Shown one piece after another: positions 16,978-50,100 of a DNA stretch of 52,251 bases. Below the pieces are notes generated by a model that was not told the DNA's origin, did no database searches, and worked only from the letters and a program-made list of their open reading frames with translations. Each line of letters opens with the position of its first letter. Within the stretch, counting starts at the first letter, position 1. The DNA is from a virus. Taxonomy: Duplodnaviria > Caudoviricetes. The stretch is from positions 1 to 52,251 of the IMG/VR virus record IMGVR_UViG_3300033148_006861. One strand, given 5' to 3'. A program made the position numbers and the translations under genes.

Positions 16978-17027
16978 ATGTTTTTAAAACAGGGGAGTCG
17001 CCAAACATGCCGAGACTGAGGTATCCT

Positions 17028-27676: not shown

Positions 27677-28168
27677 TTAATTCTCCTTTTTAAAAGCCGA
27701 TGCCACAATATCAGTTTCATTGGCAATATGAATGGCATAATGTTCTAATTTACCAGTCATTTCAAACAAATAACGGAATCCATCAGGCATGATCCGCCAG
27801 CAGTCTAACGGATACCGATGCAATGGAAATGACCAATGCGTTATTATTACCAAATATCCTTTCGGTTTTAAAATACGAACGAGTTCAGGAATCCAGTCCC
27901 AAATACGGGTTACGTGCTCCATCGTAGAGCCAGAGATTACAATATCAAACTCGCAGTCTTGAAAAGGATATCGAAAAGGGTCTTTAGACACCACATCTAC
28001 ATTTTTGCCCTGAACTAAATCAAGACCGATGTATTCCCAGCCTCGTTGAGTGATTAGAGGTTTATAGCTTCCATTGATATCCAAACTGCCGACATCGAGC
28101 ACTTTGGCATTCTTGAAATGAACTTGATAAAGTTTCATCTCCATAATTTTATAGGCCAAGTTGTGCAT
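27677..28168 (-). CDS. Class I SAM-dependent methyltransferase
   Basis: VLDVGS, YIGLD, FDIVISGSTMEH, LKPKG, HRYPLDCWR. Confidence 0.9.
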   Translation of the reverse strand: MHNLAYKIMEMKLYQVHFKNAKVLDVGSLDINGSYKPLITQRGWEYIGLDLVQGKNVDVVSKDPFRYPFQDCEFDIVISGSTMEHVTRIWDWIPELVRILKPKGYLVIITHWSFPLHRYPLDCWRIMPDGFRYLFEMTGKLEHYAIHIANETDIVASAFKKEN

Positions 28169-28477
28169 TTAGAACCACCACGGAACGCCATTGTGAAAAA
28201 CGAATGCTCTGAAAAGATTGTAAACGACTTGCCACAAAAATATCAAATAGGCCAAGAAAAATGCTTTATGGCGTTTTTTAAAAAACCATCCGAACCGTCC
28301 TAAAAAATAATTATAGCCGGCAATAAAAACAGATGGAATAAAAATAATCCATTTCAAAAAATGCCATGCAAATTTCAATTCTTGGCCACCTGCTGAAAAG
28401 TCAGCAGCGTCCATGACAGCATTTGCAATCATAGCAATTCCAAGAAACACAAATATTCTAATATCATAGGCTTTCAT
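28169..28477 (-). CDS. Small multi-pass membrane protein
   Basis: Three hydrophobic segments. Confidence 0.65.
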   Translation of the reverse strand: MKAYDIRIFVFLGIAMIANAVMDAADFSAGGQELKFAWHFLKWIIFIPSVFIAGYNYFLGRFGWFFKKRHKAFFLAYLIFLWQVVYNLFRAFVFHNGVPWWF

Positions 28478-29453
28478 ATCGAGATAATATTTTTTTTAAT
28501 TGATTTATCGGCCTCTGCCAAGTCCATCGTTTATGGACTGCTTTAGATGCCTGCCTTCCCATTTCCCGCACTTTTTCACGATTTTGATTTGCCCATTCCA
28601 TAATTGCGCAAATATGGTCAAGTTGTGGTGCGGCATCGAAACCAAAATCATTGCCGAGTGAATTGAAATAGCTTGGCTTCTTTTTCCATTTAATACCTAT
28701 CATATTGGGCTTTAGGTCATCAAGATATTCTTTGCATCCTGAAAAATCAGTCACTGCGACCCCAAGACCTGTGGCTGCTCCTTCAAGTGGAATATTGCCA
28801 AAGCCCTCCCCCGATGTCGGGTTAATACTAAAGTCGGCCTCTTTTAAAAGATTAAGCATCTGCTTTTGAGTATACCAATCCCAAATTTCTTTCATTCCTC
28901 CATATTCCAAATACAAACGCGGTGATTTGACCGGTGTGGCCTTGATAATCAACCGCGCGTGTTTCATGCGAAGTTTTTTAAAGGCCGTCCGTACAAGTTC
29001 ACAACCCTTGCGGTCTCTTGGATTAACTCCCTGCCAAATGAAAGTAAAATATTTACGGTCAACTGGACGCTCTAAAAATGGAAACTCTTTTGGGTCAACT
29101 CCATGATGTAAAATATCAATCGGAACTTTCACCCCACATTTTGTGAACCAATTAGCACACCACTTAGAGGGAGTCAAGAGTCCTTCGCGATTATTAATAA
29201 AGTCAACCCAGCCGTCTGGTAAAACCGTACTTTCAAACATGGTATAGGTTAAAAAAGTATTGCACCGTCTGCGATATGATTTTGCATGTTTTCTATCCCT
29301 AAACGGCTGGCCGTACCATATCTGAATATCTGATTTATGGGGCTTATCCGTTATCTCAATATCAGAGTCACTCAAAGCCTGGCGAAGTTTTGTTGCCACC
29401 CTGCCGTATCCAGTCGGGCTATCATTTGCGGGCGACGAAAAATAAACGGCCAT
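28464..29453 (-). CDS. Family 4 (GT-B) glycosyltransferase
   Basis: TGYGRV, MFEST, HHGVD, RKG, EGFGNIPLEGAATG. Confidence 0.9.
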   Translation of the reverse strand: MAVYFSSPANDSPTGYGRVATKLRQALSDSDIEITDKPHKSDIQIWYGQPFRDRKHAKSYRRRCNTFLTYTMFESTVLPDGWVDFINNREGLLTPSKWCANWFTKCGVKVPIDILHHGVDPKEFPFLERPVDRKYFTFIWQGVNPRDRKGCELVRTAFKKLRMKHARLIIKATPVKSPRLYLEYGGMKEIWDWYTQKQMLNLLKEADFSINPTSGEGFGNIPLEGAATGLGVAVTDFSGCKEYLDDLKPNMIGIKWKKKPSYFNSLGNDFGFDAAPQLDHICAIMEWANQNREKVREMGRQASKAVHKRWTWQRPINQLKKILSRYESL

Positions 29454-29455
29454 AA

Positions 29456-29944
29456 CTATGCAGCCGTATCTACAATTGTTCCGAGTGCTTCCTCAGTGTC
29501 ATCGTAATTACACTGAAATTCAACAGGGATAACGGTCTCGCCATCTTTAAGATAAGGGGTTGGCCCGGTCATGGCTATCACGGCTGCGAAAAATGTGGCG
29601 GTTCGAGTACAATCATTTGGCCCTTTGCCAGTAAATACAATTTCCACCTCTCCCTTTTCTGACAGATCAATTTCAAGAGAACTGGAAACAAGTGCGCTAT
29701 CAGCCAAATTGAAAGCGTCTCTTAAATTTTCGAGCGTTGATTCGCCTAAAGTTGTTCTAACAGTGACATCCCTGCCAATTAATTTCCGCTTTACTGATGT
29801 AAGAGATTGATCCATTTCAACCTCATAGTATTCGGTTGAAACTTCCATTTCCACACCGCCCTTTGTATAGCCTACATCCCTGCCACCAATTGATAAAGTC
29901 ATGGAAGTGCCACTTATAGAGATATTGTTTTTGTCCACAGACAT
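29456..29944 (-). CDS. Major tail (tube) protein
   Basis: DVGYTKGGV, VEMDQ, TLGESTLENL; strong AAGGAGG RBS. Confidence 0.8.
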   Translation of the reverse strand: MSVDKNNISISGTSMTLSIGGRDVGYTKGGVEMEVSTEYYEVEMDQSLTSVKRKLIGRDVTVRTTLGESTLENLRDAFNLADSALVSSSLEIDLSEKGEVEIVFTGKGPNDCTRTATFFAAVIAMTGPTPYLKDGETVIPVEFQCNYDDTEEALGTIVDTAA

Positions 29945-29951
29945 TGGAATC

Positions 29952-30013
29952 CTCCTTGCTTTGATTTGGTATTAAATCTTAATTTGCGAGCCGCCAACTA
30001 TGGCAAATTAAGA
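29952..30013 (-). promoter_or_regulatory. Structured leader motif upstream of the tail-tube gene
   Basis: 11-bp stem TCTTAATTTGC/GCAAATTAAGA, loop CATAGTTGGCGGCTC, then ACCAAATCAAAGCAAGGAG. Confidence 0.7.
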
Positions 30014-30448
30014 CAGATCAATATATTGCAAACGAAATGCACTTGTAACAAAATGTTCATCTGGAATTTTGGAATCCCAATATACACCGCTATGCGGGTT
30101 TATTAAATAGCAATTAAATACTCGTCCTCCAGTAATAGTGATACTTATGTCATCTAAAAGACTTTCTATTCGTTTTTGAATCTTTGACAGCTTTTGTGTA
30201 TTGCTAACTCCATTATTAAGGTCATCAACAAACGTGGTAATGTAGATTAGAGCAGTTTGTAATTTGTTTTCTGTATCTATCCCTGCTCCACCCATTTTCA
30301 TTATTACTGACGGATTAGATATCCCTTTCCGTCTTTGAGGACTTTTTTCGATTTTATCATTTCCGTTCAGATAAGCAGAACCTTGCAGTGTCGAATCTGC
30401 ATCGAGGATTTTAAAAACTGCTGTTAAAATTTCGTCACTTGAAATCAT
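30008..30448 (-). CDS. Tail terminator-like protein
   Basis: Size and position upstream of the tail tube gene. Confidence 0.6.
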   Translation of the reverse strand: MISSDEILTAVFKILDADSTLQGSAYLNGNDKIEKSPQRRKGISNPSVIMKMGGAGIDTENKLQTALIYITTFVDDLNNGVSNTQKLSKIQKRIESLLDDISITITGGRVFNCYLINPHSGVYWDSKIPDEHFVTSAFRLQYIDLS

Positions 30449-30753
30449 AATTTTTTAAGACTATATTCATCGCCATAGGCTATAAAAGTTATTTCATATT
30501 CATCGCTGCCGTCTATTACAACATCATGCAGTTGTATATCTGTAAAGGTTTCCTCTGTATATAACTTATGAGTAGAAATAAAATTAATTCCTGAATCGCT
30601 GATTTTCAAACCACCAATATCGGGTTGAATATCAGCGATTATATCATAATGAATTATGGTTTCATTTACGCTACCATAATTACCGCTTTCATCTTGCGTT
30701 TGCGACCTGCGGACAATATTCACTCTTTTTAAATACTCTTTATCAATTAGCAT
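30445..30753 (-). CDS. Head-closure (stopper) protein
   Basis: V.I.R...DESG...ADIQP...THKLY...DIQLHDVV pattern. Confidence 0.65.
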   Translation of the reverse strand: MLIDKEYLKRVNIVRRSQTQDESGNYGSVNETIIHYDIIADIQPDIGGLKISDSGINFISTHKLYTEETFTDIQLHDVVIDGSDEYEITFIAYGDEYSLKKL

Positions 30754-31304
30754 GTCTGACTCTGAAAATCAATTGGCGGAATCCATTCATTTATATTGTG
30801 CAGAATATCATTATCCCTTCTGGAAAATAAGAAACCGTGCTGAGCAATATCCTTTCGCCAACTTTCCATTTCCTTTTGATAAAGTTCAAACATATTTTTT
30901 CTGCTTGAAGAAAAATCTTTTGATATTTTCCCCCGCGTCCATTTCGATGGAATTAAATCACCGAAATTATCAAAGTCCTCTTTAGACATCAAAAGGAAAA
31001 ACTGGGCACGGACAAAACGGATTAACAACTCCTCATCCTTTTCAGGGACAGTAATTGTATCGCTATCATTTGAATAATCTTCATGTGGTTTTGTGAAAAA
31101 AACTGTGAGACTCTTAGACTCTGAATACCAAGAGCCCATATCAATTTTATTCTGATAAATATCAACTGTCCAGCCTGTAATCTGATAATCTTCTCTTGTT
31201 GCATTATTTATGTATCGTATTTCATCAATTCTATGGCCAGCCTGCAAATCTAAGCCGTCTGGACAATCATAATATCTTACATTTTCTGACGTTGTTAAGG
31301 TCAC
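30747..31304 (-). CDS. Head-tail adaptor-like protein
   Basis: Position; overlaps both neighbours. Confidence 0.5.
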   Translation of the reverse strand: MTLTTSENVRYYDCPDGLDLQAGHRIDEIRYINNATREDYQITGWTVDIYQNKIDMGSWYSESKSLTVFFTKPHEDYSNDSDTITVPEKDEELLIRFVRAQFFLLMSKEDFDNFGDLIPSKWTRGKISKDFSSSRKNMFELYQKEMESWRKDIAQHGFLFSRRDNDILHNINEWIPPIDFQSQTC

Positions 31305-31630
31305 AGTCGTTCTGTATGGTCGAAATCGGGAATAATGTACAAGTCAAATTCATCAATTGCTGCAGAAAAAGCTTTTTCAACTGTCAAGGTTGCTGTTACA
31401 TTATCAAAGTCTGCAATTTTGCGACTTTCACCTTGCGGCGCTGGATTTATCGCATCATAAGTATTAATAATATGCAACCATTGACCATTCCAATAATCAT
31501 CTGCCTGAGTTAGATTCACCGTATCAGTCAATGTGATTATACTGCCACCTGTGGCATTGCCACCAATTCGTATAATGTCATGGATTTCCTCGCGGATTAA
31601 ATCCCTCAATTGTTTACGTGTTTTTGTCAT
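31301..31630 (-). CDS. Virion structural protein (adaptor N-terminal-like)
   Basis: TRKQLRDLIR, DDYWNG, QGESRKI.DF...LTV motif. Confidence 0.5.
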   Translation of the reverse strand: MTKTRKQLRDLIREEIHDIIRIGGNATGGSIITLTDTVNLTQADDYWNGQWLHIINTYDAINPAPQGESRKIADFDNVTATLTVEKAFSAAIDEFDLYIIPDFDHTERL

Positions 31631-32289
31631 TTGCCTCTAAAAATTTGAAAATCTGGAAATGTTGAAGCGCTTTTTACGAACATAGTATCTTTTGCACCGA
31701 TCAATATAGGCACAAACATATAGGCATTTTTTCTCACATAAATCCAATTTGTTATTTTATTTGTACGAAACATAATATTCTCATCAGCATAAATTGTTAA
31801 ACCAAATTTATAACCACCAGTCAATAAAATGGTATCAGGTGTCGCAGAGACCATTAAAATTGAATCCATCTTCATATAGGTATAAAAAGCGTTATAGACA
31901 CCACCAAGACTATCTATTTTAATTGGTATTTCGGTATCATATCGAAATGTAAACCGATCACCAACACTTAAAGAATTTGAATAATAAATTTTAAATCCCG
32001 GCACATTTATAGAATCAACTTTTAGGGGCGTGATTGTATAACTCGAATAAACTTTTGTGATTTGATTTCGGTATTGACAGCGATAATCAGAACCGCTAAC
32101 ACTTAAAATTCTAATCTCATAATCATAGTCAACAGAAGCACTGCCAGTAACCGAATCACAAGAAGTACCAACTATGTTTTCATATTCAAGTGTTCGGTAA
32201 TCACCGCGACCATAAATTGTTGTATTGTCAATAGCAAAATTATATTCTGCCATAAAAAATATAATTAATAATAAAATGTGTCTTTTCAT
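31627..32289 (-). CDS. Signal-peptide protein, paralogue of 34633..35307
   Basis: Shared KIDSLGG/KVDSVGG, SATPDTI, VKSAS..D..I.RGK. Confidence 0.7.
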   Translation of the reverse strand: MKRHILLLIIFFMAEYNFAIDNTTIYGRGDYRTLEYENIVGTSCDSVTGSASVDYDYEIRILSVSGSDYRCQYRNQITKVYSSYTITPLKVDSINVPGFKIYYSNSLSVGDRFTFRYDTEIPIKIDSLGGVYNAFYTYMKMDSILMVSATPDTILLTGGYKFGLTIYADENIMFRTNKITNWIYVRKNAYMFVPILIGAKDTMFVKSASTFPDFQIFRGK

Positions 32290-34631
32290 TTTCCCACCCA
32301 TACTAAAACTCTTTGTGTCAATCCAGCAGGAACAGCTTGCATAGCAATGACGTTCGTCTCAGATAGCGACTTTTCCAAACTACCATAAGCAGATGTTTGT
32401 AGATAATCACCAGCATCAACTTCCCCTTTTACAAATGCCCGAATACGCCCCACCGCCGTAACAGGCACACCGTTTTTAATTCCACCTCCACCAAGAATCC
32501 CAGCATTATCTGAAACAATTCCCCACCATCCGGCGAAGCCTTGTTTTGTACAACGAATAACATCAAGCGGGTCAACGGTACTTAAATCCCACATAACAAC
32601 TGTACCCTGCTTGATATTCGCTTGTTGTCGAACAAAAACTACTGTATCGCCAACAAACTTTTTAAATTTATCCTTTATCCGAAATTCCAACTTGGAGTGT
32701 CCTTCACTCCATTTCAAATTATACAAATCAGTTAATCGTTTTTCAACTTCACCTTTTTGGATAACTGTGTTAGTATCCAAAATGAAAAAATTTCTATTAT
32801 TAAAATTCCACACTGCCGATTTTGGTAGTACAATTTCTTTCTTTATTTCTGTCAACGCATTAGGACTAATTCGCCACATCTCTGCATAATCCTCACCAGT
32901 GGTATTGTACGCATCTGCGTACATGTCCTTCCACGGTAAGGATGTAGAACCAACGTTGTAAAAAGAATCTGCTGGCATAAGATTGCACCAAAATCGTGTA
33001 CTATCTGCACTTAGCTCAACATCAGCAAAAAGACGATTTACTTCCAAGTAATCGTAGTCGTTCTGTACCATGCTTGGAGACCCACTTGTCGTCAAGTCGA
33101 GCGAGTTGCTCGTCTCGTCAGTCAATGTTGCAGGCGTACCTGACTCATTCATCTTCCAGTAGGCTACTTCGCCAATTCTTTTCAGCGTCACGTCGTCTAT
33201 GGTAAAATCACCCTGCGTAGCCGTTGTTTCTGTTGCGTCTATTACGAAATCTGCTGTAGATACCCCGCTCGCAGATTTGAATACTACCGTATGTGTTCCT
33301 GCTGTAAAATCTAATGTAACGGCTGATTCAGCAAACGTATTCGTTATCGTTAACGCAAAATCTCCGTCTGGCACTGTTGTGACTACTACGGTATATGTAA
33401 AAGCGTACCAAGACGAGTTATCCCCAACATTTGCCCTGTTTGCCGCCGTCTGAGTCAGAGTTCCATTTAGACTACCCCCAGCGAATACAAATGCAGCATT
33501 TCCACCAGTGTCGTCGACTTCACCAGTCACATCCCACTTGGCGTGAGAAGCAAAATCTGTCTCATTTAGACATTCCGTCCTATCTGCATCCTCAAGACTT
33601 CCATACCCCAAATCGCTCAAACTCGCATACGGAGACTTATATATCAGTGGAATTAAACTAATACCGTTCGCCTGATCCCAAATTGTATCACCGTTGCTAT
33701 CTCCTACTTTAATTATAGTAGAACCCCCACCTCCTCCATTCGTAACATAAAGGCCATCTTTACCAAAACGTAAAATATGTCCGTCATCTATATCACCATT
33801 AAAAAGTAACGAACCATTTTGCATAGCGCCTACATACAATTTATGTGTGTTTGTTATGCTCCCTGTTTTCGAACTTATATCAGCAGCAGCGATAAAAATC
33901 CCATCCACAAAAACATAACCATAATCGCTTCTGTCAATAATTACGCAAGCATTATGCCATTTACCATCTAACAAAGAAGTATTATACGAAGACACAATTG
34001 TAATTCCCCCGGTTCCATCGTTAAACAAGAACTGGATATATGGATTACTGCTTCTTACATAAAAATCAAAATATGAAGTCGAACTGCTTTCCCGCTTAAT
34101 AATCAAGCCTTGATTCGTTGTTCCGTCTGATTTAAACCATATAGTCTCCATAAAATCATCATACTCAAAATTTACTTCATCAGAATTATTACTATAAGCA
34201 TACTGACTCGTCCCGTTCAGAGACAAACAGTTTCCAAGTGGAAAACTCTGCACCTCTGAACGTACTTCAAGCGTATCTGTCACTACTATATTATCAGTAG
34301 TCGTGGCAGGAGAAACTTCACCACCAGAACGAGTCCAGTTAGCTTGTATATCTCCCCATCCTCCGCCACTATTCTTAACTTGTATCGTCCCATTATTATC
34401 CCGCAACCCATACCCACTACTCCCCCAAGTACTACCAAAATTCCAATATGAATTTGTTTGAGGAACACGTACGTTACCATGAATTATCAAATCACCAGAT
34501 ATAGGCAAACCGAGATAAAGACTATCACCATCGCTGGTAATTCCGCTGAGATTTGTTGAAATAGAAACATGTTGTCCAAAAGAAAGAGATGCTGTTAAAA
34601 ACAAACACAAAATCAATATTTTTATTCTCAT
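32286..34631 (-). CDS. Large signal-peptide LamG-domain protein with autoproteolytic-chaperone-like C-terminus
   Basis: MRIKILILCLFL signal; DGKWHN, LYVG, FNGDIDD; DYAEMW...GIVS...GDYL.TS. Confidence 0.7.
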   Translation of the reverse strand: MRIKILILCLFLTASLSFGQHVSISTNLSGITSDGDSLYLGLPISGDLIIHGNVRVPQTNSYWNFGSTWGSSGYGLRDNNGTIQVKNSGGGWGDIQANWTRSGGEVSPATTTDNIVVTDTLEVRSEVQSFPLGNCLSLNGTSQYAYSNNSDEVNFEYDDFMETIWFKSDGTTNQGLIIKRESSSTSYFDFYVRSSNPYIQFLFNDGTGGITIVSSYNTSLLDGKWHNACVIIDRSDYGYVFVDGIFIAAADISSKTGSITNTHKLYVGAMQNGSLLFNGDIDDGHILRFGKDGLYVTNGGGGGSTIIKVGDSNGDTIWDQANGISLIPLIYKSPYASLSDLGYGSLEDADRTECLNETDFASHAKWDVTGEVDDTGGNAAFVFAGGSLNGTLTQTAANRANVGDNSSWYAFTYTVVVTTVPDGDFALTITNTFAESAVTLDFTAGTHTVVFKSASGVSTADFVIDATETTATQGDFTIDDVTLKRIGEVAYWKMNESGTPATLTDETSNSLDLTTSGSPSMVQNDYDYLEVNRLFADVELSADSTRFWCNLMPADSFYNVGSTSLPWKDMYADAYNTTGEDYAEMWRISPNALTEIKKEIVLPKSAVWNFNNRNFFILDTNTVIQKGEVEKRLTDLYNLKWSEGHSKLEFRIKDKFKKFVGDTVVFVRQQANIKQGTVVMWDLSTVDPLDVIRCTKQGFAGWWGIVSDNAGILGGGGIKNGVPVTAVGRIRAFVKGEVDAGDYLQTSAYGSLEKSLSETNVIAMQAVPAGLTQRVLVWVGK

Positions 34632-34632
34632 T

Positions 34633-35307
34633 TTATTTTCCTCGTATTATCATTACATCTGGGATAGATGCAGATTTTATAAATACCGTATCATTGGAAG
34701 TATGCCTAACTGGAATAAATATATTATTTCCAGCAGCAAGAAAAATCCATCCATTAATTCTGTTTGATCTAAATTGAAGATTTGCACTTGTGATTATTGT
34801 TAGACCATCAGTAAAATCCCGTTGCAAAATGATAGTATCAGGTGTTGCAGAGATCACAGTCACCGTATCAACATAACATGAATCCCAGCGAGCCTCAAAA
34901 GCCCCACCAACGCTATCAACCTTGACTGATATTTTATCTGTATATCGAATGCGGAGTTTATCATTGACGCTTAACGTATCGTTAAAAAATATCTTAAAGT
35001 TCGCAATCGAAACAGAATCAACCGTTCCCGCTTTCATATACTTATCGAAGCCTCTATGCTTATCTAAATTCCGAAAATTTATTTTAACCACTCCGCCAGT
35101 AGCGGTTGATGTGGATCGTACAACTATCTCATAGTTGATATTGCCAGATGTTCCTACTCTTTTAACAGAATCCGCAGGACTGCCATTGATATTTGACCAA
35201 GTCAATATTTGTATATCGCTTTTGCCAAACATTAGAGATGTCTTTTCCTGTCCATAGCAAAAGCAAGCCAAGACCATCAGGACTAAAAAGAAAATTAATC
35301 GTTTCAT
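34633..35307 (-). CDS. Signal-peptide protein, paralogue of 31627..32289
   Basis: MKRLIFFLVLMVLACFCYG signal; shared motifs. Confidence 0.7.
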   Translation of the reverse strand: MKRLIFFLVLMVLACFCYGQEKTSLMFGKSDIQILTWSNINGSPADSVKRVGTSGNINYEIVVRSTSTATGGVVKINFRNLDKHRGFDKYMKAGTVDSVSIANFKIFFNDTLSVNDKLRIRYTDKISVKVDSVGGAFEARWDSCYVDTVTVISATPDTIILQRDFTDGLTIITSANLQFRSNRINGWIFLAAGNNIFIPVRHTSNDTVFIKSASIPDVMIIRGK

Positions 35308-35317
35308 TTTTTCCTCT

Positions 35318-36088
35318 TTATAAATTTGTGACATTGCCAGTTATATCAATTGCAACTGTTGCATTCCCAGAGCCACCCGTAGTTTTCTTAACTTGTACCA
35401 TAAGATACTTACCTGTCAATCCGGTTAATGGGAAACTGGCTTTTTCGCCTTTAAGAACTGTAAATTCAAGTTCTGCCCCGTTATCTCCTACAAATTGCTG
35501 TAAATTAGTTGTCGCTGTTGGAGCATTTCCTGTATGGCTCACAAAGACTTTAATTTTTGCCCCTTCGCTTGTTCCGCTTTCAGCAACATGCAGACACAAA
35601 TCAGAATAGCCATGTATATTTATCGCATTTCCTTTATCAGCGTAGCTTGTGGAACTAATCTCAGTGGCCGCAAGAATTTGTGAATTTAAAGGTTCAGGAA
35701 CTTGGCCATCAATGCGCGGCTTATTCCCTGTCAAGAAAGCTGTTATATCTGCATTCGTTCCAGTTGCTCCTTTCCCATAAAAAAGGATGTATCTGCCGCT
35801 TAATCCTTTCAGGTCAAAAGAAGCCCTTTCATTTTGCAATACAGTAAATTCTATTTCCGCGCCTGTACTGTCAACCAATTGATATAGCCCACTATTTGAA
35901 GTTGGTGCATTGCCAGAAATGGCAATATAGGGTTTTACCACAGCATTTTCTTGATTCGCTGATTCATGTAAATGCAATGTCAATCCAGTCATTCCCTGAA
36001 TATTAATTGCATTTCCAATTTTACCATAACTTGAACCAAGAGATGTCGCAGTGGCAAGTATAGATTTGCGCTCAGGCTTTCTAAGCAT
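35318..36088 (-). CDS. Internally duplicated beta-rich virion (decoration-like) protein
   Basis: Two ~125-aa repeats (GNAINI.G...L.LH..ES...GNAPT...GAE.EFTVL...ASF.L.GL.G.Y). Confidence 0.65.
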   Translation of the reverse strand: MLRKPERKSILATATSLGSSYGKIGNAINIQGMTGLTLHLHESANQENAVVKPYIAISGNAPTSNSGLYQLVDSTGAEIEFTVLQNERASFDLKGLSGRYILFYGKGATGTNADITAFLTGNKPRIDGQVPEPLNSQILAATEISSTSYADKGNAINIHGYSDLCLHVAESGTSEGAKIKVFVSHTGNAPTATTNLQQFVGDNGAELEFTVLKGEKASFPLTGLTGKYLMVQVKKTTGGSGNATVAIDITGNVTNL

Positions 36089-36110
36089 TTTTTACCTCCA
36101 ATTATTTTAT

Positions 36111-36359
36111 TTAAGTTTTAGGTTTAGCTTTTCTGCCTCGTTTTTTAATCGGTTTTTCTATTTTAATCGGGCCTATTGACTCAAGTTTAATTTCCTTTTC
36201 TGGTTCAATTACAGCCCACGGATATTCATTTAGCTCAAATTCACTTCTGAATCTATCAGCAAGAACTTCGCTTAATTTGTCCGGTTCGATTTCAATTTTT
36301 TCACCTTGCAGAAAAATGACCTGAATTTCACTGCTTCTGTTTCTAATCCGAAAAGCCAT
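36111..36359 (-). CDS. Small protein after capsid gene, basic C-terminus
   Basis: AAGGAGGAG RBS; KKRGRK tail. Confidence 0.65.
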   Translation of the reverse strand: MAFRIRNRSSEIQVIFLQGEKIEIEPDKLSEVLADRFRSEFELNEYPWAVIEPEKEIKLESIGPIKIEKPIKKRGRKAKPKT

Positions 36360-36379
36360 AAGCTCCTCCTTAAATAGTT

Positions 36380-36410
36380 ATGCGAGGCTAAAAACCGCAT
36401 AGCCTCGCAT
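36380..36410 (-). terminator. Hairpin after the capsid gene
   Basis: ATGCGAGGCTA/TAGCCTCGCAT. Confidence 0.55.
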
Positions 36411-36424
36411 TTTATTTCGGTAGT

Positions 36425-39400
36425 TTATGAAATAGATAATTTGCCAAGTGTCAAGGGCTGCGTGATTTTCAAAGCCGCTCGATGGTGAACCATGATTGCT
36501 TTTGTCTTGGTATCCGGGACCCACTGGGGGCCAAGAATTACAAACGGAACATAGACATAATAGTGGATGCCTGTCGATCTTGTACCAACAGCCACCCTCG
36601 AACGTCTTGCATTGGGGCTTACAAAGACTTCGCAACCAGAAACATTGCCCACACTTCGGCTTGATAAATGCAACTCGTTGCGATTCACGTTATATTTCGT
36701 CCAGCCCTCTCCAAGCCATTCCATAAAACGAGAACGGTCTGCACGACTCCAAACCATCCAGTCGGGTTCAAAGTTTCCAGCCAATGCAGTTTCATCAACA
36801 ACCAAGTCGGAATAATATAAGAACTTCTTGTTCCATTCGGCTTGGGTATATCCTTCGTCCGGGGTCGATTGAACAAAAGTCTGATCACCACCTGTGGCGT
36901 CATCCACAATTTCATAAAGAATCTTCTTGTCAATAGTGTCAACGATAGACTTGATTATGGTCTGCACCAACAGGGTCAAATAATCTAATCCGCTGCCTTT
37001 GTCTCGCATAGCCAACTGCATATCTTCAATTGTGGAAATATCAACTCTGGCGCCGAGATCGTAATCTTGCGCAGTGGCTTGGCTCTTGACAATTCCTAAA
37101 TAAGATTTGTCCTCTGCGCTGCCAGCCGTTGCGCCGGTGATGGGCTTTTCGACAAAGAAACCAACCTGTCCCGCAGTTAGAGTAGATGAATCAGCGACAC
37201 TAACACCTGTCACGTCTGTACATTTCTGACCGACATTCGTAGGTGTACAGCGTTTAATAGTGCCAGCCGCATCGGTTGTATAAAAGGTCACCGTCCAAGT
37301 TGCGGTGTCTCCATTTTCATCTTTTCCGGTAATCGTGATTACCATATCAGTGCCGGCAGGGACTTCAATCAATCTCGCAAAAAGAGGCTGCGGATACTCA
37401 TTACTCGATGGGGATAATGCACCTTCATCAACAAAATCACCATAGGTGGTAGGATTTGCAGTTGTCGTTACCAGTGTTGCAGGATTCGCTTCATCTACCC
37501 ATCCAAATTCATGCTGTCCGCGCCTGAAAACATTATCGCCAGTCGGATAACCAATCTCAAAGATGTCTTTTGTCGTGGACAGCATATCCCCTGTAACAGC
37601 AATGTTCATCGCAATTGTTTGTGGCCATGCGCCGTAAATGATTGCAGCAGCTACCTCAGTGGGTAAATTTGAACCGATAACTGTGGAAGTCGTAGCTTCA
37701 TTAGCTTCCAGTAATGGCCTAAAGTTTTTCTGCACTTCCTCGGTGATTAAAGTTTCGTAAAGCTGACCACCCGGAGATAACAGGTCACCGCCAGTTCGGC
37801 CTGTAAACTGCATATATAATTTTTGCAGCTTCAGCAATGGCCTTAATCGCTCATCCCATTCCTCCAACAAGAATCGGCCATTATCATAGACAGGACGTTT
37901 GAAAATTCTGGAAAGAATGATATCGCGGACTTTGTGAGACCCGCCTGTTTCTTCTTGCAAAATCCCCTTAGCACGTTCTTCGGTTTTCAGGGTACTAATT
38001 ACGTTTGGATTGGTAACAAACTCTTTCTGGGCCTTCATTGACTCTTGAAGTGATTCAGCAATTTCTTTTTTGCGTGACTCAGCCTTTCCTTTAATGAACT
38101 CCTCAATTTTCAATTTGGCAACCTCATCGTTTTCGTTTTCGGCCATGATCACATCAACGGCCTCCTTACTCTCGCTGAGAATATTTGCCTTTACCAAATC
38201 GCCAAGTCCCTCAAGTTCATTTACCTTTTCAGTAACATGCTCAATCAGCATCTTCTTGCGAGCCTCATAGGCGGCCTGCTTTTGGGCTTCCTCGAGCTTT
38301 TTCTTTTCTTCCTCTAAAGCTTTTTGTTCAGCCTCCAATTTAGCCTTTTGTGCCTTTAGCTCCTCTAATTCCTTCTTTTCTTTTTCTTCCATTATATTAT
38401 CCTCCTTCTTTTCCTCAAGATGAAAACCCTTTTCCTCATCGGAAAACGGCATTGAGCCAACATCTGTGAAATCTGCCCCTAATAATGTGAGTCTGCGGAC
38501 GTCATCGCCGCCCATGTTGTTAGCTTCATAATATCCATTTTTGGGAAATGCCCGCAGGCTTACACCGTCAACCATTTCCTCTAACAGCAAGACAGCCATG
38601 TCTTGCCCTGCGCTTGTTTTTAAAGTCTCAAAATGTATGTAGCCAATACCATCACTGGACGATACTCCTGTTATTTTCCCAGCCCGCTGTCTGAAATAAT
38701 CTGGATGCTTTGGATCAAGCGCCGGTCTATGTGTTGGAAACATATCAAGGACTTTCCTTGATGACTTCGACTCTTTGAGCCGTTTTAAATCTTCTTCTAA
38801 CCAAGTCCAACATTCATCTAAATAACGATTGCCATTTTCTGTAAAAGTATTGAACTTGATCATCGGCACTTTTGCCTTTACAACAAGTCCATTGTCCTTG
38901 TCTTGATTTTCTTCCAGCAAGATTTTGCCAGATAAACTAAAAACATGGCCTGACTCAACTTTATCTGAAGTTTCGATTTTTTCCTCAATTAGAAATTTTT
39001 CAGGATCGAGTTGCTTTTGTTCTTCGGTTTTCTTTTTAACAACCTGCTTAATTTCGACTTGTTCAAGAGGACCAAATTCAAAACCAGTATCGGTCTCCTT
39101 AAATGATGCCCTGAAATAGATGGAATTCATTTCCTCCTCATTCCATTTATTCAAAATCACATATTCTTTTACAATGTCTATCACATCGTATTCTTTTCCA
39201 AAATGCGCTTTGACTGCTTGATTTACTTTGTTTCGATATTCATCCAGTCCCCCTTCAATCTCCTCTTTTTTTTGCTTTTTCTTTTTGACTACTTGCTTAG
39301 TATCGGGGTCATACATATATTCATCACCAAGCTTAGAGGCCAATCTTTTCCCCATCTTAGCCCACTCCTCATCGGTATAGCCTCCCTTTGTTTTATTCTC

Positions 39401-40981
39401 AGTATGATTAAAATACGCTAATGCAGCTTTAAGGTGTGTTTTATCGGCGGGATAACGGAAATTAGTATTATGTGCGATAAAACCATTAGCAACAAAATTA
39501 TGCGAACCCTCAACCATTATATCATAAACAGGTTCAGGCGACAATTGTTTGATATCTCGAACTCTTGAAACTGTAAAAATTTGTTCGTTTTCAAGAAATA
39601 TGTCGCGTCCACCAAATACTTTACCCTGAGGCCGATAATTTGAATAAAGTACAATTTGATAAGCAAACGATTCCGTCCCAAAATTCTTTGTTGGTTTGCG
39701 CTCATAAATGTTGCTGCTCCACCATCCAGCATATTTGGCAAGAACCTTAACATCCTCCAATAATTGCTTATTGCATGAAACAATATAATGTTGCCCATTT
39801 TGAGGTGTATGCCCATCGGCATCTATATAGCCTTTTAAAAATTCGGATATTGCATCTTCTGATAATTGGAAAATCCATTTAGGTATTCTTCTATTATGTT
39901 GATTGCCAGCGCAACAAAGTTTTACTAATTTCCGTGCAATGTCAACAGAATGAAGCCTAACTTCATAGCATTTGTTAGGCGGCTGATGGTGAGGATAGAT
40001 TTTAATTCTTTCAGCATAATCAGGATAGGCTTCACCAAGAATTGCTTTATATTTTTCAGCTTCCTCTTTACCAGAGCAAGCAAGTCTTAAACTATGTGCC
40101 CCATATTTGTTATACTCTAAATACCCATCGCCATAATAAAAACCCAAAGATCTCATCTCTGCTAAAGAATGGCCGTTATTATTTTCGTTAGGTAATTTTT
40201 TAACAATAAGAAGAAGATCGCCCTTACAGATATGATCAAGTCGCGTCCATTCTAATCTGCGCCCCAAAGGTTTATCTCGCTTTAGAGTTAATATCGGATG
40301 TTCAGCAGTGCCCTTGATTTTATCATGGCCCGTCGAAATTTCATAAATCGGGAAAACGCCAACTTCTTTCCATCCAAGTACTTTTCTCTTTTTTAATTGG
40401 CCGACGAATCTCTGTTTTTCGTATTTTCTTTTGCCACCCCACCTTTCTTCCCCAATAGATAGAAAAGGTTGGAATCCGCCTTCAAAAGAATAAACGAAAT
40501 TATCTTCCTTAATTTCAGCAATAGGCACAGGTCCTTCTGGATTGGTATAAATTAAAGTATCGCCTGTTACACAGGCATCTAAGAAATCATCTTCAGCAAC
40601 ATCTTTGTACTGCGAAGGCTTTGTAACATGCCCGCCCTCTTTTATGCCTATGCCATATTTCTTAGCTCTTGCCTCCTGAGCTTCTTTTGCTTTTTCTCTT
40701 TCGCTCTTTTCTTCTATCAACTCGTTATCTTCGTTTTCGCTCAGCGGTTCTAAGTGATTTTGATAGTCATCCATAACTATTTCCTCTTGTTTTTTGATGA
40801 CCCATTTATTCCCTACTTTTTTGTATTTTGCTTTAACTGCTCCCCAGCCTGCCATGCGTGCCTTTTCATCGTTTTTGCTTTTTGCATATTCTGCATTAAA
40901 AGCCTTGATAAAAAGCTTTTGCGCGCCTGCCGGCAGGTTCTTTAAATAAGTCGGGATATTGTTCGGGTATTGGTAAGGCAG
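36425..40981 (-). CDS. Head polyprotein: ChaB + DUF6582-like (intein-interrupted) + prohead protease + scaffold + major capsid protein; probable CTG start
   Basis: ORF extends 42 codons beyond the track start to CTG after AAGGAG, giving (M)PYQYPNNIPTYLKNLPAGAQKLFIKAFN..AGWGAVK (ChaB); NGNRY, THRP, GVSLRA, GADF protease motifs; coiled coil; capsid C-terminus (YYVYVPF); no other capsid gene. Confidence 0.85.
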   Translation of the reverse strand: MPYQYPNNIPTYLKNLPAGAQKLFIKAFNAEYAKSKNDEKARMAGWGAVKAKYKKVGNKWVIKKQEEIVMDDYQNHLEPLSENEDNELIEEKSEREKAKEAQEARAKKYGIGIKEGGHVTKPSQYKDVAEDDFLDACVTGDTLIYTNPEGPVPIAEIKEDNFVYSFEGGFQPFLSIGEERWGGKRKYEKQRFVGQLKKRKVLGWKEVGVFPIYEISTGHDKIKGTAEHPILTLKRDKPLGRRLEWTRLDHICKGDLLLIVKKLPNENNNGHSLAEMRSLGFYYGDGYLEYNKYGAHSLRLACSGKEEAEKYKAILGEAYPDYAERIKIYPHHQPPNKCYEVRLHSVDIARKLVKLCCAGNQHNRRIPKWIFQLSEDAISEFLKGYIDADGHTPQNGQHYIVSCNKQLLEDVKVLAKYAGWWSSNIYERKPTKNFGTESFAYQIVLYSNYRPQGKVFGGRDIFLENEQIFTVSRVRDIKQLSPEPVYDIMVEGSHNFVANGFIAHNTNFRYPADKTHLKAALAYFNHTENKTKGGYTDEEWAKMGKRLASKLGDEYMYDPDTKQVVKKKKQKKEEIEGGLDEYRNKVNQAVKAHFGKEYDVIDIVKEYVILNKWNEEEMNSIYFRASFKETDTGFEFGPLEQVEIKQVVKKKTEEQKQLDPEKFLIEEKIETSDKVESGHVFSLSGKILLEENQDKDNGLVVKAKVPMIKFNTFTENGNRYLDECWTWLEEDLKRLKESKSSRKVLDMFPTHRPALDPKHPDYFRQRAGKITGVSSSDGIGYIHFETLKTSAGQDMAVLLLEEMVDGVSLRAFPKNGYYEANNMGGDDVRRLTLLGADFTDVGSMPFSDEEKGFHLEEKKEDNIMEEKEKKELEELKAQKAKLEAEQKALEEEKKKLEEAQKQAAYEARKKMLIEHVTEKVNELEGLGDLVKANILSESKEAVDVIMAENENDEVAKLKIEEFIKGKAESRKKEIAESLQESMKAQKEFVTNPNVISTLKTEERAKGILQEETGGSHKVRDIILSRIFKRPVYDNGRFLLEEWDERLRPLLKLQKLYMQFTGRTGGDLLSPGGQLYETLITEEVQKNFRPLLEANEATTSTVIGSNLPTEVAAAIIYGAWPQTIAMNIAVTGDMLSTTKDIFEIGYPTGDNVFRRGQHEFGWVDEANPATLVTTTANPTTYGDFVDEGALSPSSNEYPQPLFARLIEVPAGTDMVITITGKDENGDTATWTVTFYTTDAAGTIKRCTPTNVGQKCTDVTGVSVADSSTLTAGQVGFFVEKPITGATAGSAEDKSYLGIVKSQATAQDYDLGARVDISTIEDMQLAMRDKGSGLDYLTLLVQTIIKSIVDTIDKKILYEIVDDATGGDQTFVQSTPDEGYTQAEWNKKFLYYSDLVVDETALAGNFEPDWMVWSRADRSRFMEWLGEGWTKYNVNRNELHLSSRSVGNVSGCEVFVSPNARRSRVAVGTRSTGIHYYVYVPFVILGPQWVPDTKTKAIMVHHRAALKITQPLTLGKLSIS
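39467..40573 (-). mobile_element. Intein (369 aa) with LAGLIDADG homing endonuclease
   Basis: N-terminus CVTGDTLI, block B TAEHPIL, LGFYYGDG and LKGYIDADG, C-terminus VYDIMVEGSHNFVANGFIAHN|T. Confidence 0.95.
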
Positions 40982-40987
40982 TTTAAA

Positions 40988-41063
40988 CTCCTTGCTTTGA
41001 TTTGGTACATTTCAGTTTGCGAGCCGCCCTGTCTGCCACAGGCAGACAAACATGGCAAACTGA
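40988..41063 (-). promoter_or_regulatory. Structured leader motif upstream of the capsid polyprotein
   Basis: Stem TCAGTTTGC/GCAAACTGA; loop CATGTTT[palindromic insert]GGCGGCTC; ACCAAATCAAAGCAAGGAG. Confidence 0.7.
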
Positions 41064-41073
41064 GATTATAAAC

Positions 41074-41125
41074 AAAAAAAGCCGCAACATTCTAATCGCT
41101 TCAAACGACCAGAACGCCGCGGCTT
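41074..41125 (-). terminator. Terminator-like hairpin upstream of the capsid leader
   Basis: AAGCCGC...GCGGCTT stem followed by T7 on the minus strand. Confidence 0.6.
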
Positions 41126-41200
41126 CGGTTTTTCCGATCACCTTAGCTATTCAGGCGAAACAAAAATAATCTCAAAATTTCTTAATAAAATATAAAAAAA

Positions 41201-41470
41201 TTAAAAATTCTTGTCAACATCTTTTTTTAAATTTGCATTTCGTTTAATAATTAATTTTGATAATTCAAGCCATGTACCATACGGTAAATTTCTGCGAAGC
41301 CATTTGAATAATAATAAAGCCTCTGATTTAAAAATATTTTCAGTAAAAAAATCCATAGGTCTCTTTTCTATCTGAACTGAACCGTCTGCCTCGCGGCTGT
41401 CATAAGTCTTATGCAATAAAATATCATTGCTAAATTTTTCATCTTCAAGATTATTCATTATAGTCACCAA
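41201..41470 (-). CDS. Hypothetical protein
   Basis: ORF in the late operon. Confidence 0.5.
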   Translation of the reverse strand: MVTIMNNLEDEKFSNDILLHKTYDSREADGSVQIEKRPMDFFTENIFKSEALLLFKWLRRNLPYGTWLELSKLIIKRNANLKKDVDKNF

Positions 41471-43544: not shown

Positions 43545-44138
43545 TTAAAAATACCTTTTATTATTTTGATTATGTTTATTATAAAACGAAATCATTTTAG
43601 ATAAATCCATACCCTTCTTTTTTAAAAGTTTCCTCGAATTGGTGTAATAATTCTGAAAAAGATATCTGTTTTTTAAATTTCTTAATATTTTTTTCTTATA
43701 GAAAATAAGGCTCAACAAAAAATCTTTATCATATTCATTTTTTCTAACGGCAGCTCGTTTTACAGTATGCCATGATTTTTTTTCACAATTAAATAAAAGT
43801 AGCCCCGCTTCCCGTGGGATTTCATTTTTGTTCGCAATTCCCTTTTTTACTGCAAAATAAAACCGATTGCAAAATTTAAGATAACCTCGCCATTTATCTG
43901 ATTTAATATCGGACAAAAAATCATTTCTACTAACTTTCACTTCAAAGATATCAATACAAAATTGAGTATATGATGGCCTAATATTTAGGACATCTGCAAT
44001 TTGTGTTGACGGATTGCATGATAATTGTCCAGCCCAAACACTTCCTAAAGGAATTTCATAATACGGCGTATTCTTTGCCGTAGCAAGATTTACAACTAAA
44101 TCGTAATGAGTCATAGATATTAGCCTTAAATATCTCAA
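43545..44138 (-). CDS. MmcB-like PD-(D/E)XK nuclease
   Basis: IADVL, IFEVKVSRNDFLSD..KW.GY...CNRFYFA, EIP..AGL. Confidence 0.85.
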   Translation of the reverse strand: MRYLRLISMTHYDLVVNLATAKNTPYYEIPLGSVWAGQLSCNPSTQIADVLNIRPSYTQFCIDIFEVKVSRNDFLSDIKSDKWRGYLKFCNRFYFAVKKGIANKNEIPREAGLLLFNCEKKSWHTVKRAAVRKNEYDKDFLLSLIFYKKKILRNLKNRYLFQNYYTNSRKLLKKKGMDLSKMISFYNKHNQNNKRYF

Positions 44139-45535
44139 CCATTTTCATCTTTAGGTGGTTGAAATCCGACATCTACTAAAGAGGGGCTAAATCTTTCCTC
44201 TATTTCAGCCCGCCAAGCTAAATCTTCCTCAATTTCTTTCTTGATTGTTTTTTCATCTCTATCAAAAAGCTCTGCATAAACCGACAGAGGCAATGCCATT
44301 CTATCAACACCATCTTTGGCAATCAATCCTAAGATTCGTTTATCTTCGACAGATTTTTTCGGCCATATTAGATTAACCTCCCAATCCTGTGGTAAATATC
44401 CCCAAAGGATTAGCTGCACTGTATTCAATTTTTTCATTCCATTAGCAAACATATTGCAGATAGCAGGCAAAAGGCCTTTTACATATCTGTGCTCTTGTCT
44501 TTCAAGAATAGACCTGTTTGCCGTGTCTGAGCCATAGCCTGCAGTTAGGGCTGCCGGACGTCTCAAAGATGCAAACAATTTTGACTGTGCATATCTCACG
44601 TCATCAATATTGAATAATGCGCTATTGGATGCCTCCAAAATTTTAGCATCGCCTGTGGTATAAAGAATAGCTTCGATAGTTTCATCGCCATATTTTTTAG
44701 CCTCCTCTAATTCTGCTGCCATAATTGATTTTAGCTCCTCAATTGTTGCGTTAGGATATTGCTTGTTAAGGCGCGGATAAGCTCGCTTCTTTCGTGCTGT
44801 GAATAAATCTTTTTCGGTCTTGAACAATCTGTCCCAATTAACCGATGCGCTGCTTAAAAAACTTAATCCGAAATTATCTTCATCAGGTTTATTCCAGTCG
44901 AATCGTACAACCTCCCACGGCGCAAAAATGGCTACTGGCTGTTGTGTTAAATACTCGAACTGAATATAACAGCCTTTGAATTGTCCTTCATCAATTTCAA
45001 CTGTAATAAATCCTTTTTTGGGGCCTTTAATGTGCCGCAACTCAATAATCTCTTTTGTGTTAAAGTCAACTACAATCCGATAAAATCTTGACCCTTCCAG
45101 TAAAGACCATTTAATTATATTTGTTGCATTGTTAAACAGTCCTAAAGATTGATATTTGTCTCTAAACAAATTTTCAAGTTTTTCCTCATCCTGTTCTTTT
45201 TCAATGCTGCTGCCGATTTTGCTGACTTCAATATTAAAGGGTCTGCCCTCTCTGTTAATCTCTGTTGCATCTTCTGCAAGTGCGTCTAAATTTGCTCTTA
45301 TGCGGTCATCTTCTGAATACATCTCCCACGCTGTTCGAGCCTGATTATAATAGCCTCGGGGCAAATAATTAATCTGACTCTCAATAGACAAGCGAGTGGG
45401 TCTAAAATCGAACTCGCTTTGAGCTGTGAGATTCCCTTCTTGCCTTTCATGTGCTCTCACAATTTTGTCAATTTTCTCCGTCTCTTTGGAAAAAGGATTT
45501 TTTAATCTGTTTAAAATTCCAGTGAACACGCTCAT
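44135..45535 (-). CDS. Portal protein
   Basis: 466 aa directly after TerL; WEVVRF...FGLSFL pattern. Confidence 0.8.
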   Translation of the reverse strand: MSVFTGILNRLKNPFSKETEKIDKIVRAHERQEGNLTAQSEFDFRPTRLSIESQINYLPRGYYNQARTAWEMYSEDDRIRANLDALAEDATEINREGRPFNIEVSKIGSSIEKEQDEEKLENLFRDKYQSLGLFNNATNIIKWSLLEGSRFYRIVVDFNTKEIIELRHIKGPKKGFITVEIDEGQFKGCYIQFEYLTQQPVAIFAPWEVVRFDWNKPDEDNFGLSFLSSASVNWDRLFKTEKDLFTARKKRAYPRLNKQYPNATIEELKSIMAAELEEAKKYGDETIEAILYTTGDAKILEASNSALFNIDDVRYAQSKLFASLRRPAALTAGYGSDTANRSILERQEHRYVKGLLPAICNMFANGMKKLNTVQLILWGYLPQDWEVNLIWPKKSVEDKRILGLIAKDGVDRMALPLSVYAELFDRDEKTIKKEIEEDLAWRAEIEERFSPSLVDVGFQPPKDENG

Positions 45536-49089: not shown

Positions 49090-49845
49090 TTAAAAAGGTA
49101 AACTCATTATTCGCTCATAAGGGTGTGACTTTTTGCCCCTTGTTCGCTTTTTGGGTCTTATTGCGCTCCCAAAATATTTTCTTAAAAATTCAGTGGCTTG
49201 TTTTTCCTTTTCAACATTTCTAAACTTTGCCAACCCGCCAATGTTTTTAAATGTTTTCCTTTGTTTAAAACCATACCGTTCGTCAACAAAAATATATCTG
49301 TGATGAAAAGCATTAAGCAAACTGACCCAGTAATCCTCAACCAATTCCGCCTCTTTAACGAAATACAATTTGCTGCCTTTTAATAAACCCATCGCGCAAC
49401 CAGTGACATACCCAGTGAGGCGAAAAGGCTTTAAGCTTGTGAAATTCCTCATATCAGCACCGAATTGGAAGCCAAATAAATAAGCTCCGATTTCTTTAGT
49501 CATTTCGGCGGTTCTCTGGATAATTAATTTTGCTGTTTTCGGATCAATAAAGCAACCATATTCAACGAGTTCATTTTTATTAATTGGCGGCAAATAGGTT
49601 CGATACATCGCGGTAACGTCGTCATCAATCATAAAGACATTTCCGAAATGCTCATAAATCCATTGCCGTTTTAAGGCCAGCCCGACAACATCGTTTGGAT
49701 GGGTGACAATCTCATGCTCTGGATTAGATTCTTTATACTCGGATTCGTGGGCCTCGGGTACACAAATAATAGCATCTAAGACCGCTCGCTTTGCAATCAC
49801 TTTATCGGGTCTTTTATGGCTCGGTATTACGATCTTGATGTCCAT
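49090..49845 (-). CDS. TAGT/GREB1-like GT-A glycosyltransferase
   Basis: IVIPSHKR, KRQWI, MIDDD, EDYW, N.GG motifs; start MDIKIV. Confidence 0.75.
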   Translation of the reverse strand: MDIKIVIPSHKRPDKVIAKRAVLDAIICVPEAHESEYKESNPEHEIVTHPNDVVGLALKRQWIYEHFGNVFMIDDDVTAMYRTYLPPINKNELVEYGCFIDPKTAKLIIQRTAEMTKEIGAYLFGFQFGADMRNFTSLKPFRLTGYVTGCAMGLLKGSKLYFVKEAELVEDYWVSLLNAFHHRYIFVDERYGFKQRKTFKNIGGLAKFRNVEKEKQATEFLRKYFGSAIRPKKRTRGKKSHPYERIMSLPF

Positions 49846-50100
49846 AATTCCATAAACTCCGCAAATGTGAGAACCCGCCCAGTTCCTATTTTTTGTTGTT
49901 TGTAACACTTTTCCTTTTTCAGTTTCAGAATCTCAATTAATTATGTCCAGTCTATTTGATTATCACAGAAAATAATGACATAATTGTATTGTTCTGAAAA
50001 CTGCGGCACAATAGGAAACACCGGCTCTTGATTATCTTCAAACCTTCCCCGCGCTTCTTCAATGAATTTTTGTAGAGCTTCTTTTTCAATGACATAGCTT
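49827..50100 (-). pseudogene. Remnant of the upstream partner gene (C-terminal fragment with internal stop)
   Basis: EPVFPIVPQFSEQYNYVIIFCDNQIDWT*LIEILKL...IGTGRVL; TAA at 49941-49943; no start codon. Confidence 0.6.

Follow-up and report, generated by a model that had tools for sequence, protein, structure and literature searches.

Why should two unrelated virion genes of one phage, those for a head polyprotein and a tail-tube-like protein, be preceded by leaders that carry the same loop and the same tail on stems of different sequence? The question is raised by the virus record IMGVR_UViG_3300033148_006861 of IMG/VR, the whole of which (52,251 bp, with terminal repeats) forms the window analysed here. 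The sequence-only reading of this DNA described the repeated leader at 29952-30013 and 40988-41063, and the sequences were found there. It also counted four copies and tied them to virion genes; what the window holds is three full copies plus a 15-nt loop fragment that has neither stem nor tail, and one of the full copies, which is in the early region, is followed by no gene. The repeat itself is real; the module looks, from its sequence, to be under selection. The reading that we favour, tentatively and with a probability that falls short of even, is a shared post-transcriptional (translational or stability) operator, in which the hairpin and the tail leading to the ribosome-binding site would be bound by one factor.

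All three full copies lie on the minus strand (A, 30013-29952; B, 41063-40988; C, 4803-4741) and are built in the same order: a 9-11 bp closing stem, a loop, the 3' arm, a linker (7 nt in A, 6 in B and 3 in C) and a conserved CA-rich tail, CCAAAYCAAAGCAAGG (also given as CCAAAYCAAAGC). In every full copy the loop starts with (G)CCAT and ends with GGCGRCTC(R), TGCCAT being kept in A, B and C; the tail of A and B continues as AAGGAG(G), 6-7 nt ahead of a start codon. Compared with each other, A and B are identical at 41/41 positions of three blocks, TTTGCCAT (8 nt), GGCGGCTCGCAAA (13 nt) and TACCAAATCAAAGCAAGGAG (20 nt). The segments between the blocks do not match; these are the outer 5' stem (TCTTAA in A, TCAG in B), the apex (AGTT in A; in B a 23-nt stretch with its own 7-8 bp hairpin) and the outer 3' stem with the linker (TTAAGATTTAA in A, CTGAAATG in B). 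The hairpin of A (29977-30013) has an 11-bp closing stem, TCTTAATTTGC / GCAAATTAAGA, and the loop CATAGTTGGCGGCTC, and its 5' arm contains the TAA (30010-30008) at which the upstream gene stops; linker and tail (29952-29976) end in AAGGAG(G), and the ATG is at 29944. In B the hairpin (41012-41063) closes with the 9-bp stem TCAGTTTGC / GCAAACTGA around the loop blocks found in A and the additional apical hairpin, and the last 20 nt of its linker and tail (40988-41011) are identical to those of A, ending in AAGGAG. The stem of C (hairpin 4760-4803; 11 bp) is wholly different, CCCCAGAGCTG / CAGCTCTGGGG, with the loop CCATTTAGAGTTTGGCGACTCA; C keeps TGCCAT, GGCGACTCACA (9/11 identical to A) and CCAAACCAAAGCAAGG (15/16), and in the segment that holds its linker and tail (4692-4759) the tail pairs with a downstream complement in a long hairpin, with no protein gene directly behind. 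The loop fragment, D (16995-17009, minus strand; CATGTTTGGCGACTC, 15 nt), consists of the loop blocks only, the loop start of B joined to the loop end of C, and lies, stemless and tailless, past the final gene of the minus-strand late block, in a stretch without structure.

Both the sequence and its pairing indicate that the repeat is not a product of chance. GGCGRCTCRCA occurs 3 times against 0.89 expected, the 20-mer common to A and B gives E = 4e-6 in blastn-short, and the 12-mer of fragment D that is identical to that of C has 2 matches against 0.09 expected, a count reached in 0/100 shuffles. A covariance model was built from A and C only and then used to align B; MAFFT alignments of the three copies misplaced the 5' arm. 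In a search of the window this model detects B at E = 3.2e-6, and with filters off the other 15 matches have E = 0.7 or worse, three of them being the opposite strand of the same hairpins, with fragment D at E = 0.98. In the three-row alignment 30/32 stem cells (93.8%) are paired, versus 22-45% after a shift of the 3' partner by 1-3 columns; 6 of the 11 stem pairs are changed on both sides, and the observed pairing values are reached by 1/500 shuffles. The earlier claim that the stems differ in sequence and still pair is borne out by these counts, which rest on three paralogous sequences only and so have little statistical power.

Because pairing, not sequence, is what the stem keeps, the module would act as a single-stranded nucleic acid rather than as a double-stranded DNA site, and its strand, its position and its fusion to ribosome-binding sites argue that this nucleic acid is RNA. 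All copies, and fragment D, are on the transcribed strand. Neither simple duplication nor one gene-conversion tract would give the pattern seen between A and B, since the identical blocks are interleaved with unrelated segments; constraint on loop and tail would give it. The upstream gene ends inside the 5' arm of A, which takes in its final codons and stop (Leu-Ser-stop in this phage; Leu-Thr-stop in L170 and L173, the closest relatives), and because this arm is coding and the 3' arm is its complement, the helix of A was apparently fitted to pre-existing local sequence. The tail likely is constrained beyond its role at the ribosome-binding site, since it is kept so closely in C, where no gene follows, and since the sole difference is a natural polymorphism of A: the T at 29964 in the tail of A, which is the base by which the tail of C differs, is replaced by C in the contigs from two further metagenome runs, in which A is otherwise unchanged (contigs of four DNA sequencing runs were compared, and A is covered in two). 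The strict conservation of loop blocks and single-stranded tail even in C thus points to recognition by a common partner, beyond mere stability. No standout complement to loop or tail was found elsewhere in the genome. Intrinsic terminators can be set aside as an identity for the hairpins: none of the three appears in the terminator scan, their stems are not followed by a U run (the sequences right after them are UUUAAUACC, AAUGUACC and ACUCCAAAC) and their loops are 15-34 nt long.

Predicted folding is strongest for C, which with its extension (4690-4810, 121 nt) has z = -7.16, and hairpin B has z = -2.87. RNAfold places a short inner helix in the loop, AGUU/GGCU in A (p ~0.9) and GAGUU/GACUC in C (p ~0.76), and in either case the G or A of GGCGRCUC pairs with U; in B the prediction puts these loop bases in a different register and stacks them on the inserted hairpin. 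Common to all copies in these predictions is the closing stem together with partly unpaired CCAU and GGCGRCUC.

Behind A stands the tail-tube-like gene (29456-29944, minus strand; 162 aa), whose product matches PHROGs 2175, 1280 and 885, annotated as Ig-domain or major tail protein. A model of this protein from 16 homologues is of low confidence (pLDDT 55), and nearly all of its top Foldseek matches are chains of the tail-tube or Hcp-like type, with E from 4.7e-4 and TM ~0.5. Behind B stands the head polyprotein gene (36425-40981, minus strand; 1518 aa), whose product opens with a ChaB-like stretch, carries an intein with LAGLIDADG and a coiled-coil middle, and ends in a Gp23-like capsid domain. 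The last 519 residues match Gp23 weakly (E = 5.8e-4, 19.8 bits versus a Pfam cut-off of 24.4), and the Atlas leads for the polyprotein are Phage_capsid families at a score of 0.84, which is a lead only. The description of the two genes as capsid and tail-tube is thus reasonable, the capsid identity having the weaker evidence, and the copies are directly before their ribosome-binding sites. Scored against a generic anti-Shine-Dalgarno string, the ribosome-binding site of A is the second strongest of 45 scored and that of B is moderate. The Shine-Dalgarno of B is predicted to be paired with CUG-CCUU in a small hairpin, with an unpaired probability of ~0; a weak CTG together with a masked Shine-Dalgarno would fit, without proving, a start that needs or undergoes control.

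The start of the polyprotein is an apparent CTG (40979-40981, minus strand), 6 nt past AAGGAG, with no ATG, GTG or TTG in frame upstream, and the Pfam ChaB domain (residues 12-61) lies ahead of the first ATG. CTG-CCT-TAC aligns with ATG-CCT/C-TAT (Met-Pro-Tyr) in the three relatives that keep the N-terminus, and L141, a 99.5% identical contig, has the same CTG start. The intein with its LAGLIDADG homing-endonuclease domain spans 39467-40573 (minus strand), about residues 137-505 of the 1518; four relatives appear to lack it, their protein matches running from residue 529-573 onward plus a short ChaB-like N-terminus only.

The context of B (41079-41217, minus strand) consists of a promoter-like TTGACA-17-TATATT (41217-41189), which at 11/12 is the best promoter-like site of the region and lies ~125 nt upstream of B, and then a terminator-like hairpin with a T run (41125-41079); B starts 16 nt past this hairpin, and the gene follows. 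Promoters at the module hairpins themselves were considered and rejected: a -10-like hexamer lies 1-6 nt upstream of each, promoter-like sites are at chance frequency, and a start there would cut the stems of B and C. After C come an AT-rich hairpin and a small helix-turn-helix-like gene. A 26-codon frame (4573-4653, minus strand) starts at an AUG in the 3' arm of the long hairpin of C, with AGAGG 8 nt upstream; if it is translated, its ribosome-binding site would be masked by that hairpin. The small genes adjoining B (85-89 aa, 41201-41470, minus strand) and after C (the helix-turn-helix-like one, 91 aa, 4294-4569, minus strand) have no tblastn match in four related records and are lineage-specific like the module, with no family recognised for either; an Atlas search with the 85-aa protein next to B was uninformative.

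How widely is the module distributed? The question of a known Rfam family had been raised with the sequence-only reading, and none matches: Rfam 15 gives 0 matches in the whole window at gathering thresholds, and at permissive E-values nothing over A, B or the strand of C itself, a sub-threshold NsiR1 match falling over the opposite strand of C (15.7 bits versus a gathering score of 39, E = 6.2). The pattern scans of IMG/VR and of prokaryote genomes require loop blocks or tail as in this phage, so that strongly diverged relatives would be missed. Among the matches listed, those of IMG/VR place the module only in this phage and in L141, which is 8.3 kb long and unchanged in B. One such scan gave at least 119 stretches with at most 6 flanking pairs each among the matches listed, versus 8-12 for the window's own copies; a second gave 31 stretches, with the hairpin only in L141, and a third gave 3, namely L141 and 2 chance matches. 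With one genome per prokaryote species, the scan returned 117 matches attributable to chance, each with 5 flanking pairs at most. The reference phage collection gave no match to 28000-32000 (blastn) or to the 466-residue portal-like protein (tblastn). The tail-tube protein alone found no viral-contig relative; the 16-homologue alignment found 9 viral and 33 metagenome loci, and related phages with tail-tube proteins 58-63% identical exist. In the 40 upstream regions of related tail-tube genes that were read, the module is absent and the leaders are 13-45 nt long. The covariance model, run over 43 related loci (234,125 bases), matched only L141, and over four whole related virus records it matched in 0/4; the model search of phage genomes that had been proposed thus yielded no homologues beyond L141.

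The closest relatives, L170 and L173, have 13 nt from stop codon to tail-tube ATG versus 63 nt here, about 55 nt being inserted at A between the stop codon and the ribosome-binding site relative to them. The region of C is likewise lineage-specific, four relatives having coding sequence or nothing comparable there. The capsid leaders of the relatives carry a hairpin of unrelated sequence before the ribosome-binding site in 4/4 examined; three of these have, in order, a TTGACA promoter, a terminator, two G+C-rich hairpins, a ribosome-binding site and ATG, the second hairpin having a stem ~13 bp long in which, by reading of the sequences, changes keep pairing, and the fourth (G004) has a terminator and one hairpin with no TTGACA. 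A hairpin just ahead of the capsid start is, on these sequences, a shared habit of the phage group. The same hairpin type at two genes and in a third place is found only in this phage, the capsid leader of the relatives not being repeated in their genomes. The matching leader lies at about 34970-35167 in G001 and in the corresponding places in G002-G004, with TTGACA in G001-G003, and the loop of the first hairpin in three relatives holds CCUCC, which could pair with the ribosome-binding site. In L154-L177, within the 40-45 nt that precede the tail-tube gene, most relatives have a small hairpin of their own ahead of the ribosome-binding site, GGRAW ... WUYCC, with arms that differ between phages and a loop that often includes ACCA(A/C)U, reminiscent of the ACCAAAU that opens the tail of this phage.

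A shared translational or stability operator is favoured because the layout is that of the T4 gene 43 translational operator, which, as reviewed, has a hairpin ~40 nt upstream and a sequence overlapping the ribosome-binding site (PMC3014915). The likeness holds for A and B and is absent in C, with no gene behind it. The T4 operator as described there exists once and is bound by the protein that its own gene encodes, and the sequences are dissimilar, whereas the module stands at two unrelated genes and in a stand-alone RNA, with no candidate binding protein among the 42 proteins scanned. As an operator the module would be an RNA element that works in cis within the 5' leaders of two messages, those for the head polyprotein and the tail tube, where a closing stem of any sequence would present a fixed, partly single-stranded loop (CCAU ... 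GGCGRCUC), and a short variable linker would join the hairpin to the fixed CA-rich strand leading into the Shine-Dalgarno. Loop and tail together would be recognised by one trans-acting factor, most likely a phage or host protein, which by covering the ribosome-binding site would set the translation of the two major virion subunits and possibly the lifetime of their messages. Copy C, with its tail sequestered, would, as a stand-alone early structured RNA, add one more binding site and serve as a decoy or as a target under separate control. We infer from sequence that the element acts as RNA and that a factor binds it, and likewise in which sense, repression or activation, it would act. A more elaborate version, which we consider a long shot, is a phage-private RNA regulon with a decoy: the factor would bind loop and tail on the capsid and tail-tube leaders, and early C would titrate or deliver it so that both subunits switch on together, the stems being built from local sequence, coding included.

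Several observations weigh against an operator. No RNA-binding family was recognised among the 42 proteins, which were scanned against Pfam and/or PHROGs. There are three paralogous copies and no homologues, which leaves covariation low-powered; fragment D is without the stem that a hairpin operator would need; and the absence of the module from the relatives shows that such a phage can dispense with it. Hairpin A in its 81-nt context folds little better than chance would have it (z = -0.95, with 31/200 shuffles folding as well), and the predicted apical fold differs among A, B and C, so that a single protein-binding shape is not evident. In predicted accessibility the start regions of A and B come only 36th and 37th among 42 genes, which does not bear out the idea that the tail is simply an open landing pad for the ribosome. 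The strengths of the two ribosome-binding sites, second of 45 at A and moderate at B, are counted on this side as well.

The foremost competitor, to which we give a lesser though appreciable chance, is a signal for RNA processing or stabilisation, whereby a host or phage endoribonuclease would cut at the loop or just past the stem and the capsid and tail-tube messages, with 5' ends that the hairpin protects or that begin right behind it, would outlast their operon neighbours. T7-like phages have RNase III processing sites between their genes, in the form of intercistronic hairpins that recur ahead of highly expressed genes. Like these the module is repeated and intercistronic, with variable helices and conserved internal features; it lies between cistrons of a long minus-strand block, directly ahead of the two genes whose products are needed in the largest numbers, and stems that vary around a conserved loop are what is expected of a nuclease recognition site. 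The closing stem and apical hairpin of B stack in RNAfold to a nearly continuous helix of ~22 bp, and the related phages also have hairpins before both genes. The helices of A and C, however, with 11 bp and 4-5 weak pairs, are short for an RNase III substrate, the 9-11 bp closing stems being shorter than those of the T7 sites, and processing leaves unexplained the conserved single-stranded tail that runs up to the ribosome-binding site and is present in C, which has no gene. Rather unlikely is a palindromic insertion of little or no function, copied by recombination or by template switching in replication and tolerated in intergenic gaps. Template switching makes a complementary arm in one step and would yield the complement of the coding flank seen in A; all copies are lineage-specific in the comparison with the relatives, at A as at C; fragment D resembles a decayed copy; and the phage holds other selfish DNA (the intein) and a RecT/YqaJ recombination pair. 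Neutral copies, however, should decay evenly, and here all 41 block positions of A and B are identical with everything between them replaced, a stem of 9-11 bp is kept in every full copy despite the different sequences, and in 2/3 full copies the end falls exactly on a ribosome-binding site. Among the matches listed, no other genome scanned has a copy, which argues against an active mobile element. Repetitive extragenic palindromes and miniature mobile elements were rejected as a class for the module on the same absence from the scans, on its having only three copies and on its different stems.

An element acting on transcription, one that would modify RNA polymerase or recruit an antiterminator and so carry transcription through the long late block, is improbable. 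Antitermination RNAs such as lambda nut and HK022 put combine a hairpin with a linear conserved element, as the module does, and like them it is repeated on the transcribed strand of one genome. The leader of B has a strong promoter-like site and then an intrinsic terminator, an arrangement kept in 3/4 relatives (the terminator only in the fourth) and resembling the promoter-before-terminator order of late-gene antitermination control; a sigma-70-like match lies within 130 nt upstream of each copy on the same strand, and C is in an early transcript ahead of the weak AT-rich hairpin. Against this, B (41063-41012) is downstream of the very terminator that would have to be overcome, A has no terminator nearby, and promoter-like matches are at chance frequency (47 versus 42.7 expected, and 54 versus 48.2). 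The relatives keep promoter and terminator without the module, no antiterminator family, N- or Q-like proteins included, was recognised among the proteins scanned, and the copies stand at late structural genes. A ligand- or temperature-sensing switch built on a pseudoknot between loop and tail would start from the complementarity of loop UUGG (A) or UUUGG (C) to the CCAA(A) of the tail, which had been put forward as a pseudoknot or switch by the sequence-only reading. That pairing is not supported: its bases are invariant, so that nothing covaries; in B the inserted hairpin separates UUUG from GG by 19 nt; in C the 3-nt linker to CCAAA is too short to span an 11-bp stem; and the same U residues are predicted to be paired in the inner loop helix, with which the pseudoknot would compete (p ~0.9 in A). 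No riboswitch family matches even at permissive thresholds, and presence in a single phage lineage would be unusual for such a switch, which we thus regard as very improbable. H-type pseudoknot riboswitches (preQ1-I, SAM-II and the like) were rejected on the split helix strand of B, the short linker of C, the invariant bases and the absence of an Rfam match.

On its sequence features the module is a lineage-restricted RNA motif that can be grouped with the structured leaders or operators already known ahead of phage genes. Among described phenomena the SAS/ESAS of Cluster K mycobacteriophages come closest; the module is not a member of them. The SAS is there a conserved 13-mer with a Shine-Dalgarno core (consensus GGGATAGGAGCCC, 13 bp) directly before a subset of start codons, in 11-19 copies per genome and at non-structural genes only, half of them with inverted repeats upstream (PMC3203893, PMC12699233). 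The arms of the ESAS follow a conserved consensus; where they depart from it, RNA pairing is not supported, and the authors favour a DNA-binding site (PMC3203893, PMC12699233). The likeness is that of a phage-specific conserved sequence that includes a Shine-Dalgarno core before the starts of a gene subset, with an inverted repeat of variable spacer just upstream in part of the cases, all in one orientation, and the function of neither is known. The module differs from the SAS/ESAS in having 3 full copies, two of them at structural genes, and in that its arms share no sequence and pair all the same, the conserved part being the loop. The SAS 13-mer is absent from the window (0 matches) even when 2 mismatches are allowed.

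The phage itself is a temperate siphovirus-like phage with nearly all of its genes on the minus strand. It carries lysogeny genes (a CI-like repressor and an integrase) besides the recombination pair, and replication proteins, a large terminase, a T4-like portal (the 466-aa protein at 44135-45535, portal-like by Pfam), a MuF-like head protein and tail genes for a tape-measure protein and tail fibres are present. Two tail-region proteins (12911-16003, minus strand; 16096-16977, plus strand) end in FlgD-Ig and a type IX secretion system C-terminal sorting domain, and the gene of the second is oriented opposite to the late block. These sorting domains hint at a host of the Bacteroidota-related (FCB) group; a search of prokaryote genomes with the tail-tube alignment found no relative and thus does not identify the host. 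A family 4 glycosyltransferase gene (28464-29453, minus strand) directly follows the tail-tube gene inside the tail module, and its product might glycosylate virion proteins. A TET-associated glycosyltransferase (TAGT) family protein (49090-49908, minus strand) suggests that the phage DNA contains hypermodified cytosines.

The weight of the finding is that of a single uncultured phage lineage whose relatives manage without the module. If the operator reading is true, the module would be a natural case of one RNA operator that couples the output of the major head and tail subunits of a phage. Copy A would then be a functional helix made from the last codons of an upstream gene, and the module may be a compact, portable cassette for the control of expression.

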